4,475 bases of DNA. It comes from a virus (taxonomy: Duplodnaviria; Heunggongvirae; Uroviricota; Caudoviricetes). The notes under the pieces were generated by a model. The model did no database searches. It saw only the letters and a list, made by a program, of their open reading frames with translations, and was not told where the DNA came from. Of this stretch, positions 1 through 4,475 are shown piece by piece. Every line of letters begins with the position of its first letter. The first letter of the stretch is position 1. The DNA lies in the IMG/VR virus record IMGVR_UViG_2565956708_000012. One strand, given 5' to 3'. The position numbers and the translations under genes are program-made.

Positions 1-186
1 CTTTACAAAGCGGAGGTAATACACCGTAAGAGCTGGAAAAACCGTGCAGAAGTGGAACTGGCCACACTCACGTGGGTGGACTGGTATAACAATCGACGAT
101 TGCTGGAAAGGCTGGGCCATACTCCTCCGGCAGAAGCAGAAAAAGCTTATTATGCTTCCATCGGAAACGATGATCTGGCAGCCTGA
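1..186 (+). CDS. IS3-family transposase OrfB (integrase/rve domain), C-terminal fragment
   Basis: Open frame from window start to TGA at 184..186, translating as LYKAEVIHRKSWKNRAEVELATLTWVDWYNNRRLLERLGHTPPAEAEKAYYASIGNDDLAA. The WxxWYNxxRxHxxLGxxPPAE motif is a typical C-terminal signature of IS3-family OrfB. Confidence 0.85.
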   Translation, partial: LYKAEVIHRKSWKNRAEVELATLTWVDWYNNRRLLERLGHTPPAEAEKAYYASIGNDDLAA

Positions 187-228
187 GTTCACAGATAAAA
201 CACTCTCCAGGAAACCCGGGGCGGTTCA
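1..228 (+). mobile_element. IS3-family insertion sequence (IS629/IS1203-like), right end, 5'-truncated by window edge
   Basis: Frame-1 translation of 1..186 gives an IS3-family OrfB C-terminus, and the element ends at ...CCCGGGGCGGTTCA (228). The last 25 bp (204..228) are the inverted complement of 4382..4406, matching 23/25. The IS629 name is from memory, not a search. Confidence 0.85.
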
Positions 229-462
229 GAGTAGCTTACGAAGCTTACCATCAGCGGCAACCATGTTCATATGAACACAGTTGAATTTGCTAATCTGCTT
301 CATGAGTTTTGTTTGCTGCGTTGACCAGCTCATTCCGAGGTTTTCAACGATTGGCTTCATCGCAACATATGCAACTCCGGCAGCCATGGCGGTGATAATT
401 TGCTGACCGTTGAATGGCACGTAAGAGGTGTTCACTGCTTCTAAAATTGCTATACTATTCAT
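226..462 (-). pseudogene. ant: Antirepressor (Ant/AntA-like) N-terminal fragment, 3'-truncated by the IS insertion
   Basis: ATG at 462..460 sits 9 nt after a GGAG (complement of 473..476). The 78 native codons ([44 protein letters not shown]...) resemble an AntA-type antirepressor N-terminus. The frame ends in a TGA formed by the IS terminus (complement of 226..228), and Ant proteins are normally several-fold longer. The 528 GTG start in the ORF track is an unsupported upstream extension. Confidence 0.55.
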
Positions 463-545
463 GTTGGTTTTTCTCCACGGATTTACCGACAACCGAAGCC
501 CTGACTGTTCCAGCAGTTGGGGCTTCACTGTTTTGATTTCTTTGC
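463..545 (+). ncRNA. Putative sar-like antisense RNA covering the ant ribosome-binding site
   Basis: Extended -10 TGcTATACT at 448..456 on the + strand predicts a start near 463. The transcript would be complementary to the ant SD and start region and end at the 495..526 hairpin plus T-rich tract. This is inferred from sequence and the P22 sar paradigm only. Confidence 0.25.
495..545 (+). terminator. Hairpin with downstream T-rich tract (intrinsic terminator candidate, + strand)
   Basis: A 13-bp stem (495..507 pairing with 514..526, two G-U wobbles, loop ttccag) is followed by actgTTTTgaTTTcTTT at 527..545. The T tract exists only in the + orientation. Confidence 0.35.
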
Positions 546-694
546 CGCATCAAGCATCACTTCTGAAAACGTGCGCTTGCCACTGAATACTCTTTCTCTT
601 CTCAATTTTTCGTTCGTGCCAAATGATTCGCCATGAACAAAATTTGGTCTTAAAATGGTAATCGCAATCTCTTTGACTACTGCATCCAAGCGAA

Positions 695-847
695 TCACAC
701 CGTTACCCCCTCTCTCTTCAGGCTGTCTATCAGGCGCTTGATAACCTCTGAGTTAAACGACCTGCACTCTTCCTTTGCCCTGCTACCGATAGCATCCTTT
801 AACGACTGCGGCATCCTTACCAAAATCTTACTTATTTCTTTCTCCAT
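695..847 (-). CDS. arc: Arc-like ribbon-helix-helix transcriptional repressor (50 aa)
   Basis: ATG at 847..845 follows GGAGGG with a 5-nt spacer. The product MEKEISKILVRMPQSLKDAIGSRAKEECRSFNSEVIKRLIDSLKREGVTV fits the Arc/MetJ RHH pattern (basic beta-strand xVRMPxxL, then RSxNSE helix) and P22 Arc length. It lies upstream of and co-oriented with the ant fragment. The 883 start in the ORF track is an unsupported extension. Confidence 0.7.
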   Translation of the reverse strand: MEKEISKILVRMPQSLKDAIGSRAKEECRSFNSEVIKRLIDSLKREGVTV

Positions 848-961
848 GTTACCCTCCACGCAAACAACTCTTTTCGAATACAAAAGATAGCAAAGTGAGT
901 ATATCTAGTCAAAATTTTTTTGCATACACTTTGCTATCAAATTGAATACCAAAGGTGTTAT
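848..961. promoter_or_regulatory. Divergent promoter/operator region between the arc-like and mnt-like genes
   Basis: 114-bp intergenic region. On the minus strand, a candidate -35 TTGACT (912..907) and -10 TATCTT (889..884) with a 17-bp spacer face the arc-like gene. On the plus strand, TTGCAT (920..925) is a possible -35, but the matching -10 is unclear. The region contains the inverted repeat listed next. Confidence 0.45.
886..938. promoter_or_regulatory. Perfect 12-bp inverted repeat GATAGCAAAGTG ... CACTTTGCTATC (candidate RHH operator half-sites)
   Basis: 886..897 and 927..938 are exact reverse complements, with centres about 41 bp apart. The left copy overlaps the predicted -10 of the minus-strand promoter. 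Confidence 0.5.
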
Positions 962-1210
962 ATGGCAAAGGGTGTGTCAATTTCTCCAACTACGGTAAGA
1001 ATCCCTGAATCTTTACGCGAGGCTCTTGCTGTCAGAGCATCAAAAAATGGTCGCTCTGTTAACTCCGAGATCGTCATGATTTTGCAAGCCGCGATTGATG
1101 AAGATAGGTCGCCAAAGTCAGTTGAGTCATTTGCTCAGCAAGAAGCTGATAAATTCAAAGAGGCGCTACTTGAGACGCTAAAGACCATGTATGCTAAGGA
1201 TGAAAAATAA
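962..1210 (+). CDS. mnt: Mnt-like ribbon-helix-helix repressor (82 aa)
   Basis: ATG at 962 is preceded by AAAGG. The product MAKGVSISPTTVRIPESLREALAVRASKNGRSVNSEIVMILQAAID... has an N-terminal RHH (GRSVNSE motif) and a C-terminal helical tail ending ...LETLKTMYAKDEK, the same size and architecture as P22 Mnt as I recall it. It is divergent from arc. The 920 TTG start in the ORF track is an unsupported extension. Confidence 0.6.
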   Translation: MAKGVSISPTTVRIPESLREALAVRASKNGRSVNSEIVMILQAAIDEDRSPKSVESFAQQEADKFKEALLETLKTMYAKDEK

Positions 1211-1746
1211 TGCTGCACACAATTCATTTCTTATGCCCTGTTAACACTGCCACTGTTGGGCAACTTCAGAACCACTGTCTCACCGCATTATCTCAAGGCG
1301 CAACTGAATTAAATATCCATATATCAAGTCAGGGAGGGGAAACTGCTGCTGGCTTTACTGCGTATAACTTTCTTAAGTCACTCCCTGTTACCGTTAGAAC
1401 TCACAACATAAGCAATGTTGAATCCATAGCTAATATCGTTTTCCTGGCTGGCTCAGAACGTTTCGCAAACCCATTATCAAGATTCCTGTTACATCCTCTA
1501 TTATGGTGCTTTGCCTCCCCAGCCGCCGACCATGCCAGATTGAGAGAGTACGGGAAATGCCTCGATAACGATCTTGATCGCTTCGTTGAGACGTTCAATA
1601 TCGACATCGGAACCCATATTAGGTGGGCATCCCTGATAGCAGACTCGACCATTTTGGATGCTAACAAGGCTCTTGAGCATGGCATAATTAATTCCATAAA
1701 AACTGCAAGGCTGGCATCCAATCAGGCAAACTGGTGGGTTGTTTGA
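1210..1746 (+). CDS. ClpP-fold (peptidase S14-like) serine protease homologue, 178 aa
   Basis: The start overlaps the upstream stop (TAATG at 1208..1212). By eye the translation aligns with E. coli ClpP: NIHISSQGGETAAGFTAY vs YINSPGGVITAGMSIYD, SNVESIANIVFLAG vs GQAASMGAFLLTAG, LLHPL vs MIHQP, and LEHGIINSI vs VEYGLVDSIL. Candidate Ser/His/Asp triad positions are occupied. It lacks the ClpP N-terminal segment. Confidence 0.6.
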   Translation: MLHTIHFLCPVNTATVGQLQNHCLTALSQGATELNIHISSQGGETAAGFTAYNFLKSLPVTVRTHNISNVESIANIVFLAGSERFANPLSRFLLHPLLWCFASPAADHARLREYGKCLDNDLDRFVETFNIDIGTHIRWASLIADSTILDANKALEHGIINSIKTARLASNQANWWVV

Positions 1747-1777
1747 TGGGTAAATCATGATTACTCCTTATAAAAAA

Positions 1778-1796
1778 CCCACCTGACGGTGGGTTT
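1778..1796. terminator. Bidirectional intrinsic terminator between convergent genes
   Basis: aaaaaaCCCACCtgacGGTGGGttt: a 6-bp GC-rich stem (1778..1783 with 1788..1793) and 4-nt loop, flanked by an A tract upstream and a T tract downstream. It sits between the ClpP-like stop (1746) and the YafO-like stop (1795..1797). Confidence 0.6.
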
Positions 1797-2244
1797 AGTC
1801 AAACATAGTGTTTCTAAAGTCTCTCGCATACCCTGCTAACACTCTCATTCTATTATGATTGTTAGCAGACATGTGAGCTACAGGATGAAAAAGAGCAATC
1901 AATGAATACCTGTTCTCATCAAAAAGATTTTGTGCATAAACGAGAGCGGTATTGGATGTTTTATGCCACTGCAACTTTTGCGGTGTGCTGATATCTGTGC
2001 CATTTTTTATTGGCTCAAATTTATTTTCACCAATTGCTAAATGAAGGTGCATAAGGCCTGCATCTTCAATATCAGGAGGTCGATGATAAGAGGTGTCTCT
2101 GCCAAAATAGCTGGGCAACGTTCCCGTAGACTTGTAGATGATAAAATCATCTACAAGTGTTTGTTTTAAATCAGGAAACTCAACAAAAACCGGGGAGAAA
2201 AAATAGTCAAAACTATCCTGATTATATTCCACGGTTACTTGCAT
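1795..2244 (-). CDS. YafO-family toxin (ribosome-dependent mRNA interferase family), 149 aa
   Basis: ATG at 2244..2242 follows GAGG with a 6-nt spacer. The translation aligns with E. coli YafO as I recall it: DFIIYKSTGTLPSYFGRDTSY vs DFISYKRDGVLPDIFGRDALY, HLHLAIGEN vs HIHLANEN, ALVYAQNLFDENRYSLIALFHP vs HLVYCQGAFDEQAWLLIAILKP, and a C-terminal NNHNRMR...ARDFR vs DNNQMHK...AEAFR. Confidence 0.7.
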   Translation of the reverse strand: MQVTVEYNQDSFDYFFSPVFVEFPDLKQTLVDDFIIYKSTGTLPSYFGRDTSYHRPPDIEDAGLMHLHLAIGENKFEPIKNGTDISTPQKLQWHKTSNTALVYAQNLFDENRYSLIALFHPVAHMSANNHNRMRVLAGYARDFRNTMFD

Positions 2245-2252
2245 GTTTTACC

Positions 2253-2819
2253 TCAGTGGAAGTTACCAGAGTGAAACACACGAGTCCCGTGCTCAGCAAG
2301 CGCACGCAAACCAGCCATATCTACGGAACTATCAAAAACAACCGGAACACATGAGCGTTGTTTAATAAGACTATTCAGGTTGGTTACGGCAGATCTGGCA
2401 TCAGCAACAACGATATAGATATCTCTTGCGATCTCTTTAAAATCAGCAGAAGCTTCTTTGAATACCGATTTCATTGCCCCTTCAAGTCCTCTCAATTGAT
2501 GCTCTATCAATCGAGACTTTTCTGGTTCAATGATAGACAACACATTGTCTACATTCTCATCGGTAGCGTTTGCAAGAACACGATAAGCGTATTTCAGCAT
2601 TCGAGACAATTCTTTAATCGAAGACACCGCCTCATGAAGCTCATCATTAGCCCGTTCACTGCTGAATGAGGATTGATGGTAAGCGTGCTGAACGTTATCA
2701 GTAACAACCACCTCACAACTGAACGCAGAAGCTTGCTGTAATAGCAAACCTATTGCGACTCCAGCTTTGGCAGCGTTCAAGCTAAACATTTCATCAATCC
2801 CATTAGTCTCATTGCTCAT
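2253..2819 (-). CDS. Hypothetical protein (188 aa), upstream operon partner of the YafO-family toxin; putative non-canonical antitoxin or regulator
   Basis: ATG at 2819..2817 is preceded by AGGAGG with a 5-nt spacer. The stop at 2255..2253 lies 8 bp before the YafO-like ATG. I recognise no family. The TTG start at 2849 in the ORF track is less likely than the RBS-supported ATG. Confidence 0.55.
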   Translation of the reverse strand: MSNETNGIDEMFSLNAAKAGVAIGLLLQQASAFSCEVVVTDNVQHAYHQSSFSSERANDELHEAVSSIKELSRMLKYAYRVLANATDENVDNVLSIIEPEKSRLIEHQLRGLEGAMKSVFKEASADFKEIARDIYIVVADARSAVTNLNSLIKQRSCVPVVFDSSVDMAGLRALAEHGTRVFHSGNFH

Positions 2820-2886
2820 ACAAACCTCCTTCTTATCGGAGATTATCAATAGCTATGCATCCATTGAATACACGCTATGCGCAATA

Positions 2887-2915
2887 AGTTTACGTCACGT
2901 GATATCATTATGCAA
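2887..2915 (-). promoter_or_regulatory. Candidate sigma70 promoter for the partner/YafO operon, with a palindrome in the spacer
   Basis: On the minus strand, -35 TTGCAT (2915..2910), a 17-bp spacer, and -10 TAAACT (2892..2887). The spacer contains the palindrome TCACGTGA (2895..2902) overlapping GATATC (2901..2906). Confidence 0.35.
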
Positions 2916-2994
2916 CCACCGTTCTATCACCGACTAACTTTACTCCCACTCCTATACATCATCTGGTATCCTGCGCAAAACTAAGGAGGTTGGT

Positions 2995-3345
2995 GTGAAT
3001 GCTCAGTCTGTCATCATGGTTTTCCTTGGGCTGATTGTCGCAAAACTATATCCAGACTGGTGGAAAGGGGCATTAGCTACTGTCGCCATCTATTTGCTTT
3101 TATCCATCGTTAAGCGATCACTCGCTGAGACCGTAAATCAAGCAAAACGTTTCTCATTTAAGAGTTTAATAAACTATGTTACTGGGCTTATTTTTTGCCT
3201 TTCAATTCTGATCGCTTCGGCTTTTTTGCCCGTATCAATAGCTAATTTTTTTGGCGCACCATATGAGGTAGGTTATCTATTCTCTGTTTCCTGTCTTGCC
3301 ATTGCTCTTCTTTACCTGTGGACGAGATCAAAGAATAAAAATTAG
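2995..3345 (+). CDS. Small integral membrane protein, 116 aa, about four predicted transmembrane helices
   Basis: GTG start at 2995 is preceded by a strong AAGGAGG (2983..2989) with a 5-nt spacer. The translation has four hydrophobic stretches (about residues 5-19, 25-39, 58-78, 92-109) separated by short charged loops, with a basic C-terminus. The gene is AT-rich relative to the flanks and divergent from the partner/YafO operon. Confidence 0.6.
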   Translation: MNAQSVIMVFLGLIVAKLYPDWWKGALATVAIYLLLSIVKRSLAETVNQAKRFSFKSLINYVTGLIFCLSILIASAFLPVSIANFFGAPYEVGYLFSVSCLAIALLYLWTRSKNKN

Positions 3346-3362
3346 CCATCCGTGGCTGCCAG

Positions 3363-4381
3363 TTATTGAGCTTCTTTTTGTGATGCCTGTGCGACTCTGG
3401 TGAGCGATTGTGTGACCGTACTGATCGCTCTGTCATATGCTGTGCTACCTTTTGGCGTATTTGCCAGACGTAACAAGGCATTTCGTATAACAGGGCTTTC
3501 GTATGCCTTCGCAGCTCCTCCTACGACACCAGCAGCAGGAACAACAAACGCAGCCGTTTTTAGCATCCCCGCTAATACTGCTGCGTTTATGATGCCACCA
3601 CCAACTAACAATCCATAAAGCTGCTGACCATTTAAGTTTTGAACGTTCGCTTTTGCCGCGTGTCTTGTATCGTTGAGGTATTTAATAACGCCGTCCAGTT
3701 CCTTTCCATGTACGCCTTTAAAGAAAGTTGCTGATTGCTTCCTGTTCCGGTGTAACGCATTAATAAACTTTTCAACACTAATATTTCCAGACGGATCAGT
3801 CGCCTTATCTACAGCATTCTGAACTATGGCTGCTCGTGCGTTTTGCCTACCATTGTCATCCAGAAGCCTGTAAAGCTGAGAACGTTCTGATGGGTTTTGG
3901 CTAAAAACGAGTTTTGTTACATCCTCAGGTGTAGCCTTGCCGCTGGCTATTGCCTTTTGAACGCGCGTTCTTCCCATCATGTCATTGAATCTAGCCCATG
4001 AGCGATCAACCCTAGACATATTGGCAGCTTCTTCTGAGCCTAGTTTTTGGGATACTGCTTTTTTCATATCCGCTGTATATGCCTTGTAGACAATATCGCT
4101 GGCTTTCTGGAGCGTGTCTTTATCAACAGTCTCGTTTGAATTCATGAACCGCTTTCGAAGGTCAGTTCTGTTTTCTCTCGCCAGACGCAGGTCATTGGGT
4201 CCGCTGGTGATATCGTCTTTAAATTGCTGCAAGACTTTTACCGCGGCTCTATCCTGAGATTTGCCCGGGCGGCTTAACACGGCAATCTGATTGTCGATAG
4301 CTTTTACCGTGTTTGAGAGATCGACAGGGGTATCCCCCATAGCGTCAATTATGCGGTTATATCGCTTTCCTGCTGCCTCAA
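3363..4381 (-). pseudogene. Large protein, 5'-truncated by IS insertion; possibly a phage DNA-ejection/internal protein (gp16-like by synteny)
   Basis: The minus-strand frame is open from the TAA stop (complement of 3363..3365) through the IS junction at 4381/4382 and on to a stop inside the IS. The first ATG (4340) has no SD. The product has a glycine-rich hydrophobic segment (LLVGGGIINAAVLAGMLKTAAFVVPAAGVVGGAAKA). The gp16-like call rests only on its position relative to mnt. Confidence 0.4.
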
Positions 4382-4475
4382 TGAACCGCCCCGGGAATCC
4401 TGGAGACTAAACTTCCTGAGAAAGAGGTAAACAGGATGACTAAAAATACTCGTTTTTCCCCCGAAGTCCGTCAAC
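4382..4475 (+). mobile_element. IS3-family insertion sequence (IS629/IS1203-like), left end, truncated by window edge
   Basis: Terminus TGAACCGCCCCGGGAATCCTGGAGA (4382..4406) is the inverted repeat of 204..228. It is followed by an RBS (GAGG) and the orfA start. It has the same orientation as the copy at 1..228. Confidence 0.85.
4436..4475 (+). CDS. IS3-family transposase OrfA, N-terminal fragment (MTKNTRFSPEVRQ...)
   Basis: ATG at 4436 is 7 nt after AGAGG. The N-terminus MTKNTRFSPEVRQ is the characteristic start of IS3-family OrfA (helix-turn-helix protein) of the IS629 group, from memory. Confidence 0.8.
   Translation, partial: MTKNTRFSPEVRQ

Follow-up and report, generated by a model that had tools for sequence, protein, structure and literature searches.

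The virus record IMGVR_UViG_2565956708_000012 of IMG/VR (Caudoviricetes), a stretch of 4,475 nt analysed at its full length and hereafter called the window, carries on its minus strand two adjacent genes that probably form a bicistronic type II-like toxin–antitoxin (TA) module, which a P22-like prophage would have as a moron among its accessory genes and whose antitoxin would be of a new family that does not bind DNA. The upstream gene (2253-2819; ATG at 2819, stop at 2253-2255) encodes a protein of 188 aa, here called the partner, and the downstream gene (1795-2244; ATG at 2244, stop at 1795-1797) encodes a 149-aa, long-form protein of the YafO toxin family. The pair thus has the generic layout of type II TA systems, with the antitoxin gene upstream, adjacent and co-oriented. 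An earlier reading made from the letters alone (the sequence-only reading) had described two open reading frames (ORFs) with an 8-nt gap and a strong ribosome-binding site, the second of them YafO-like; the anatomy was confirmed, with the strand, left unsaid in that reading, now added, and the YafO assignment held in profile searches and in alignment with the protein of Escherichia coli K-12. All features of the pair given below lie on the minus strand unless stated otherwise.

The 8-nt spacer, the Shine–Dalgarno (SD) sequence over the partner's stop codon, and the hairpin with a U-run at the toxin stop make the pair look like one translationally coupled operon. Before the partner, the SD sequence AAGGAGG (2825-2831), as read from the sequence, stands 5 nt from the ATG. 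At the junction of the two genes (2245-2255), the spacer (2245-2252) adjoins the partner's TGA stop and a GAGG (2251-2254) overlaps that stop, which is the layout expected if translation of the toxin is coupled to that of the partner. In homologous loci the gap is 8-18 nt, and in Pseudomonas the two genes overlap. An intrinsic terminator (1771-1796) with a 9-bp stem, a GUCA loop and a U-run begins within the toxin stop codon; its RNA folds at -14.9 kcal/mol (z=-3.37), and none of 200 shuffled sequences folds as well. The terminator is common to the pair and a convergent operon with a ClpP-like gene, which lies 48 nt from the toxin stop.

The assignment of the downstream gene to the YafO family is solid. 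Its product matches Pfam PF13957 (YafO_toxin) with 78.9 bits (cut-off 25; E=3.4e-22) over profile positions 3-101 of 101, as well as phrog_1651 (E=1e-47), and aligns over the full length with K-12 YafO at 34% identity. Its score against NCBIfam NF007377, the equivalog model of K-12 YafO, is 79 bits, under the cut-off of 153, and the protein is therefore a family member of a distinct long-form subfamily and not an orthologue of K-12 YafO. All columns that are invariant across 39 diverse family members are retained, including H66, H68 and H124 as well as Y53 and Y103. Moreover, the AlphaFold2 (AF2) model, which is of high confidence, has the RelE/HigB (BECR) fold and matches HigB2, HigB1, YafQ, RelE and YoeB, with HigB1 of Mycobacterium tuberculosis as the second-best structural match; PF_YafO has been placed in the BECR-fold RelE/ParE superfamily (PMC11980606). 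YafO-like proteins make up at least 206 clusters at 90% identity, and among those listed nearly all are 138-150 aa long, while a sequence search of the Protein Data Bank (PDB) with this YafO-like protein (E up to 1) found no solved relative. On the strength of these family features, the protein might be toxic and act as an mRNA endonuclease.

The partner, by comparison with catalogued families, belongs to no described antitoxin family, being neither of the YafN/Phd type nor a Panacea antitoxin nor one of toxin–antitoxin–chaperone (TAC) systems. Neither the partner nor any of 30 homologues scanned individually matched Pfam (E<=0.01). NCBIfam and PADLOC gave no match above noise, the best PADLOC match being a noise-level ZorA (E=0.0039, 14 bits), and the PDB searched with the partner-family profile gave no solved structure. 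A known antitoxin or DNA-binding domain in the partner was rejected on these empty searches. The partner matches phrog_8416 over its full length (E=2.2e-96), and its PHROG matches are all of unknown function. These results, together with the predicted fold, bear out what the sequence-only reading had said of this protein, namely that it lacks a ribbon-helix-helix (RHH), helix-turn-helix (HTH) or Phd signature and may represent an undescribed family; remote homology and structure brought to light neither a known antitoxin family nor an N-terminal DNA-binding domain.

The AF2 model of the partner is entirely helical, with a predicted local distance difference test (pLDDT) score of 75.9. A helix at residues 16-41 (pLDDT 53-69) leads into a linker at 37-53 that is disordered; residues 54-156 form a helical bundle modelled with confidence, and a C-terminal helix follows at 168-184. 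No RHH, HTH or AbrB fold was matched; the structural matches were generic only, and a Foldseek search of viral structures gave nothing at E<=0.001. The further suggestion of a sensor-antitoxin fusion found no evidence, as the model is a single helical bundle with terminal helices. The bundle core (codons 54-156; 2352-2660) carries the motifs LRGLEG and VAxARSA...LN. The most conserved segment follows it (codons 157-188; 2256-2351) and reads F-x-S-x-(I/V)-D-x-x-G-L-R-x-L-A-x-H-G-T ... with a C-terminal F-H; regional identity peaks there, at 54% and 40%. Across 27-30 homologues, Q154, L171 and L174 are invariant and S164 and T179 nearly so. This conservation makes codons 157-188 the proposed toxin-binding region.

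The partner family is rare and fast-diverging. A word-indexed search returned 6 clusters, and an exhaustive profile search over 1.84 billion proteins returned 23 representatives (50% identity), nearly all of 167-190 aa; the most distant partners are still homologous by hhalign profile-profile comparison (E=1.7e-29, 5.8e-12 and 2.1e-9). The sequence-only reading had regarded the partner as atypical for a YafO toxin, and this did not stand. With a hidden Markov model of the partner family, a homologue was found directly upstream of the toxin in all 29 intact YafO-like loci other than that of K-12, whose yafN-yafO is the only sampled locus that has none. Among the long-form YafO-like loci sampled, the supposedly atypical partner is the usual one, and the YafN arrangement is the exception. 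In addition, partners and toxins have diverged together (r=0.68, Mantel p about 2e-4, 14 non-redundant pairs). In 99% of comparisons it is the partner that changes faster, with a mean identity of 29% for partners versus 46% for toxins, and such a faster rate is typical of antitoxins.

The pair is found on very different elements. In siphovirus HK639 (L003) it lies between the tape-measure and minor-tail genes, with a gap of 8 nt; in myovirus-type prophages of Proteus (L004-L006) it lies among tail and baseplate genes, in a P2-like element (L007) beside an OLD-family nuclease gene, and in a Halopseudomonas prophage immediately upstream of the tape-measure gene. Another P22-like prophage (L008) has it at the same position as the window. 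It is also present in the lambdoid PhiR40_1 (L010), in an SSU5-like phage-plasmid (L012), in Pseudomonas phages and prophages (L009, L011, L026-28; near cI or int in the Pseudomonas phages), at a prophage end in Citrobacter, on Klebsiella IncFIB plasmids, where it is flanked by IS5 (L034), and on chromosomes of Photorhabdus, Pantoea, Phytobacter and Pseudomonas. In a Yersinia mollaretii prophage (L030, 1328-3438) it is immediately preceded by ParD-ParE genes and another parD-like gene. The closely related P22-like phage phiv205-1, whose flanking genes are 99% identical, holds other cargo at the slot of the pair, which indicates that the pair is a mobile unit. The pair is intact at >=99% identity in 55 of 5,426 complete E. 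coli genomes, including a prophage remnant eroded by insertion sequences (IS). No SecB-like gene and no third conserved gene adjoins it in any locus examined.

Two side observations concern these loci. The TA cargo of L030 forms a cluster within the tail module, with the tail-tube gene on one side and the tape-measure gene on the other. In L004-L007, a gene with a tRNA_anti-like (PF12869) or DUF4431 domain stands directly upstream of the pair and might likewise be variable cargo of this hotspot.

In the mechanism that we propose, the YafO-family protein would be an endoribonuclease of RelE/HigB fold that arrests translation by cleaving mRNA. The partner would be its cognate protein antitoxin, made first from the shared transcript, with translation of the toxin coupled to it. 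Most probably it would silence the toxin by binding it directly with the conserved C-terminal half, where the last helix of the bundle and the C-terminal helix that ends in the conserved aromatic-His would form the binding surface; the joint divergence of the two proteins supports such neutralisation indirectly. Because the partner has no DNA-binding domain by sequence or fold, the operon is probably not autoregulated, and autoregulation is no requirement of type II systems. For the prophage, the module might serve addiction or retention, defence by abortive infection, or both; its spread over phage moron sites and plasmids and its intact retention in the 55 genomes fit addiction and/or abortive infection.

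Several observations weigh against such a TA module. Most partners open like Sec substrates, with a short n-region, a hydrophobic core of 9-14 residues and a small-x-small (AXA-like) site, and a partner that is exported could not hold a cytoplasmic toxin. Signal peptides were called by a crude home-made rule, which flagged 36 of 45 partners versus 1 of 17 YafO-like toxins; among its controls, all 10 known signal peptides were flagged, as were 35 of 177 background ORFs. The toxins of these pairs are mostly acidic (isoelectric point 5.3-6.4). There is neither a DNA-binding domain in the partner nor an identifiable promoter or operator logic. The toxin has no match among the defence models of PADLOC-DB 2.0, so that a defence role is conjecture. 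As for the literature, no description of the partner family was found in a search that did not extend to the supplementary tables of a Photorhabdus TA survey (PMC13617665), and the label 'YafM antitoxin' proved to be an annotation string only. It is used in a single phage record and in one comparative-genomics paper, and no experiment behind it was found.

The N-termini lead to the alternative that survives best, although we consider it rather unlikely, namely that the partner is exported, as a periplasmic protein or, in the E. coli/Salmonella subgroup, possibly as a lipoprotein, and has an envelope role such as superinfection exclusion. The YafO-like RNase would then be controlled otherwise, or the pair would be a trans-envelope sensor-effector. 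In the window, the hydrophobic, signal-peptide-like segment spans codons 11-35 (2715-2789; MFSLNAAKAGVAIGLLLQQASAFSC) and starts at the near-invariant M11. The Sec features are canonical in several relatives (MNLSLRNCLAVVLFGGVLSVPSFSA/G in Photorhabdus, ...LALAIAAVCALMAGSAAWA/DAP in P. mosselii, MNPFNAITFAALCGPLAQPAAMA/QDF in Pantoea and MARTKVPFSKVAMLSLALSVSTSCAQLAAA/T in a Pseudomonas phage), and in each a low-complexity linker follows. The linker after the partners' hydrophobic segment is rich in Pro, Ala, Gln and Lys and is disordered in AF2, and the low to moderate confidence of the helix that precedes it would also suit a signal sequence. The window partner, moreover, has LLLQQASAFSC, which fits the core of the PROSITE lipobox pattern. 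The location of the genes is in favour as well, for the pair is inserted among tail and ejection genes, which are classic sites of exclusion genes; its site in P22-like phages is presumably that of sieA of P22, itself such a site.

Other features of the pair speak against simple export. The toxin has no signal sequence, and yet the two proteins have diverged together and their translation is coupled. Partners without a hydrophobic N-terminus, namely those of the L012 type in several Klebsiella phage-plasmids and P0024, are still paired with a toxin, which points to a core function in the cytoplasm. Before M11, the window partner has an acidic extension of 10 residues (net -2), and the perfect SD sequence stands at M1. 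In the clade of the window, the hydrophobic core is short, at 9 residues, and weak, with Kyte-Doolittle values of 1.4-2.2. The N-terminal segment is also about as conserved there as the C-terminus, with a mean pairwise identity in the closest clade of 52% for the former, 54% for the latter and 31-45% for the bundle, and conservation of that degree is unusual for a segment that does nothing but direct export. Just 9 of 43 members have the lipobox-like pattern, for which reason a lipoprotein nature was rejected as a family-wide trait. On a side note, the Cys at about residue 35, right after the hydrophobic segment, is conserved only in the E. coli/Salmonella, HK639-like and Proteus groups, and its candidate roles are lipidation, disulfide formation and metal binding.

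A further idea combines the N-terminus with an antitoxin function. The partner might be an antitoxin that is a client of the host Sec or chaperone pathway (SecA, SecB or the signal recognition particle), with the N-terminus as the trigger, either because it is exported continuously or because it depends on an export chaperone. We hold this to be decidedly unlikely. A search of the literature found no exported or membrane-anchored antitoxins.

It is very unlikely, in our judgement, that the pair is no TA system at all and that the phage uses the YafO-like protein as an RNase that is non-lethal or regulatory, with the partner as its adaptor or specificity factor. The functions of both genes do rest on prediction, the partner lacks any hallmark domain of known antitoxins, and the acidity of the toxins and the sub-cut-off equivalog score would agree with such a role. 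The toxin, however, keeps all the family-invariant residues, which it shares with the experimentally toxic YafO of K-12, and its fold matches bona fide toxins. The gene order, the tight coupling and the faster-evolving partner likewise fit the TA pattern, as do the occurrence on plasmids and the neighbouring ParDE genes of the Yersinia prophage. Finally, a three-part module, in which the ClpP-like protease (1210-1746) would degrade the partner and so release the toxin, has next to no probability: its gene, with an apparent catalytic triad, is close by, convergent and served by the same terminator, but in phiv205-1 and others the Arc-ClpP-like operon is present and the pair is absent, in L008 and all non-P22 contexts the pair lacks the protease, and on this independent distribution of both units the neighbour was rejected as a third component.

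For the TA module that we favour, the promoter would be expected in the intergenic region (2832-2994) between the pair and a divergent gene for a 116-aa protein. A consensus promoter scan of the 175-nt leader found no minus-strand promoter upstream of the operon. By eye, a weak TTGCAT-17-TAAACT can be seen at 2915-2887, with the palindrome TCACGTGA (about 2896-2903) in its spacer. The leader also holds direct repeats of the form TATGCA(T/A)CCA at 2854 and 2909, 55 nt apart (TATGCATCCA / TATGCAACCA); these repeats and the palindrome might serve a phage regulator as operators. The idea that a small antitoxin ORF lies hidden in the 8-nt spacer or in the leader was rejected, since the minus strand of neither holds a plausible one; the sole candidate, in the leader, encodes 20 aa (2846-2908) and is unsupported. 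Inside the toxin gene, a perfect inverted repeat (2130-2158; 13 bp, 3-nt loop) was flagged as terminator-like on the plus strand. It was rejected as an antisense RNA or terminator because its synonymous sites are not kept in the 83%-identical homologue of L008, and for the same reason it is probably a by-product of encoding LVDDFIIYK.

The surroundings of the pair agree with the prophage accessory region that the sequence-only reading had supposed. Positions 227-4385 of the window are 100% identical to complete chromosomes of extraintestinal pathogenic E. coli (ExPEC) and avian pathogenic E. coli (APEC), including S88, APEC O1 and others. In S88, the matching stretch lies inside a P22-like (Lederbergvirus-type) prophage integrated beside tRNA-Arg. 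The slot of the pair is the accessory (moron) region of this prophage, with the DNA-ejection gene 16 on one side and the immunity-I genes mnt/arc/ant on the other. Both ends of the window (1-226 and 4386-4475, plus strand) belong to IS3-family (IS629-like) elements, with a transposase 3' end on the left and the start of orfA on the right. These pieces cut off the antirepressor gene, of which the P22_AR_N part alone is left (226-462), and gene 16 (3363-4340). Strain SCU-116 retains this accessory block between two IS copies, although deletions have removed much of the prophage.

Other genes of the window are on the plus strand, for the most part. An Arc/Mnt-like repressor gene (962-1210) overlaps with its stop the start of the ClpP-like serine protease gene (1210-1746), whose 178-aa product has Pfam and NCBIfam matches and, by eye, an apparently intact Ser/His/Asp triad. 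Such a protease is unusual for the immunity-I region of a P22-like phage; phages phiv205-1, EC.P3 and PhiR12 have one too, and its occurrence is independent of that of the YafO pair. The divergent gene beyond the leader (2995-3345, plus strand) encodes a putative membrane protein of 116 aa with several hydrophobic segments, has its own AAGGAGG and gave no family match; it sits at what we take to be the position of P22 sieA. In L008, a gene for 107 aa (3518-3841) occupies its place. On the minus strand, between arc and ant, a 57-aa ORF (525-698) matches phrog_17642 of unknown function (E=1.3e-43) and is annotated as hypothetical in S88.

YafO is among the least understood toxins of the RelE superfamily. 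Phage-borne yafO genes have been listed as toxins whose antitoxin was not identified (PMC10449497), and in the S88 record and the phage surveys checked, the genes upstream of YafO are called hypothetical. A conserved, unannotated helical partner of about 180 aa in every sampled long-form locus would define a new antitoxin family, and annotations of 'orphan toxins' would be corrected in prophages and plasmids of E. coli, Salmonella, Klebsiella, Proteus, Photorhabdus and Pseudomonas. It would also provide a candidate prophage defence or addiction module in ExPEC/APEC lineages and in the E. coli type strain. If the N-terminal segment is functional, a cytoplasmic toxin would be controlled in an unusual way. 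Should the partner indeed be a Sec client, release of the toxin would be tied to the state of export and proteostasis or to continued synthesis, and not to proteolysis by Lon or Clp. The module would then follow a TAC-like logic with no chaperone of its own, and an abortive-infection toxin would be armed in a new way.

The nearest known system is YafN-YafO of K-12, a type II TA system of the dinB operon, with which the pair shares a toxin of PF13957 with the invariant His, Tyr and Asp, the antitoxin-first order and a very short spacer. As the sequence-only reading had stated, canonical YafO follows a short YafN, and in K-12 a yafN gene for 97 aa precedes yafO at a distance of 2 nt. Unlike this YafN, the partner has 188 aa, is all-helical and has no Phd/YefM or other DNA-binding domain. 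The toxin also differs from K-12 YafO, as it represents a long form of 142-149 aa with an extra N-terminal strand and two helices, and the pair is prophage or plasmid cargo, in contrast to the SOS operon genes of K-12. In other TA modules of the RelE/ParE superfamily (BECR fold), such as HigBA, DinJ-YafQ and YefM-YoeB, the antitoxins are autoregulators with DNA-binding domains of the HTH, RHH or Phd type, of which the partner has none. PanA/Panacea (DUF4065), reportedly described by Kurata et al. in 2022, is said to be an antitoxin domain of medium size, for the most part helical, for whose function a DNA-binding domain can be dispensable. Unlike Panacea, the partner has no DUF4065 match (30 members, E<=0.01), and it was seen with YafO-like toxins only and is thus not promiscuous.

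TAC systems with SecB-like chaperones, for example HigBA-TAC, likewise have a toxin of RelE/HigB fold, and a TAC has been reported to act in abortive infection (PMC11980606). By analogy with them, a hydrophobic segment that resembles an export-chaperone client could make the antitoxin dependent on a chaperone or on export, and dependence of the partner on SecB or SecA of the host is pure conjecture. The pair differs from TAC in that its hydrophobic segment is N-terminal and signal-peptide-like, and not a C-terminal chaperone-addiction tail, and in that no SecB-like gene adjoins it. Among prophage morons, the pair is unlike the genes of the P22 sieA locus, the HK97 gp15-type genes and the P2 old/tin genes in having no homology to their proteins and no PADLOC match. 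It resembles them in its insertion sites, which in P22-like phages fall between gene 16 and mnt, in siphoviruses and myoviruses among tail genes, and in a P2-like element beside an OLD-family nuclease gene; these are moron-type sites that it shares with these loci.

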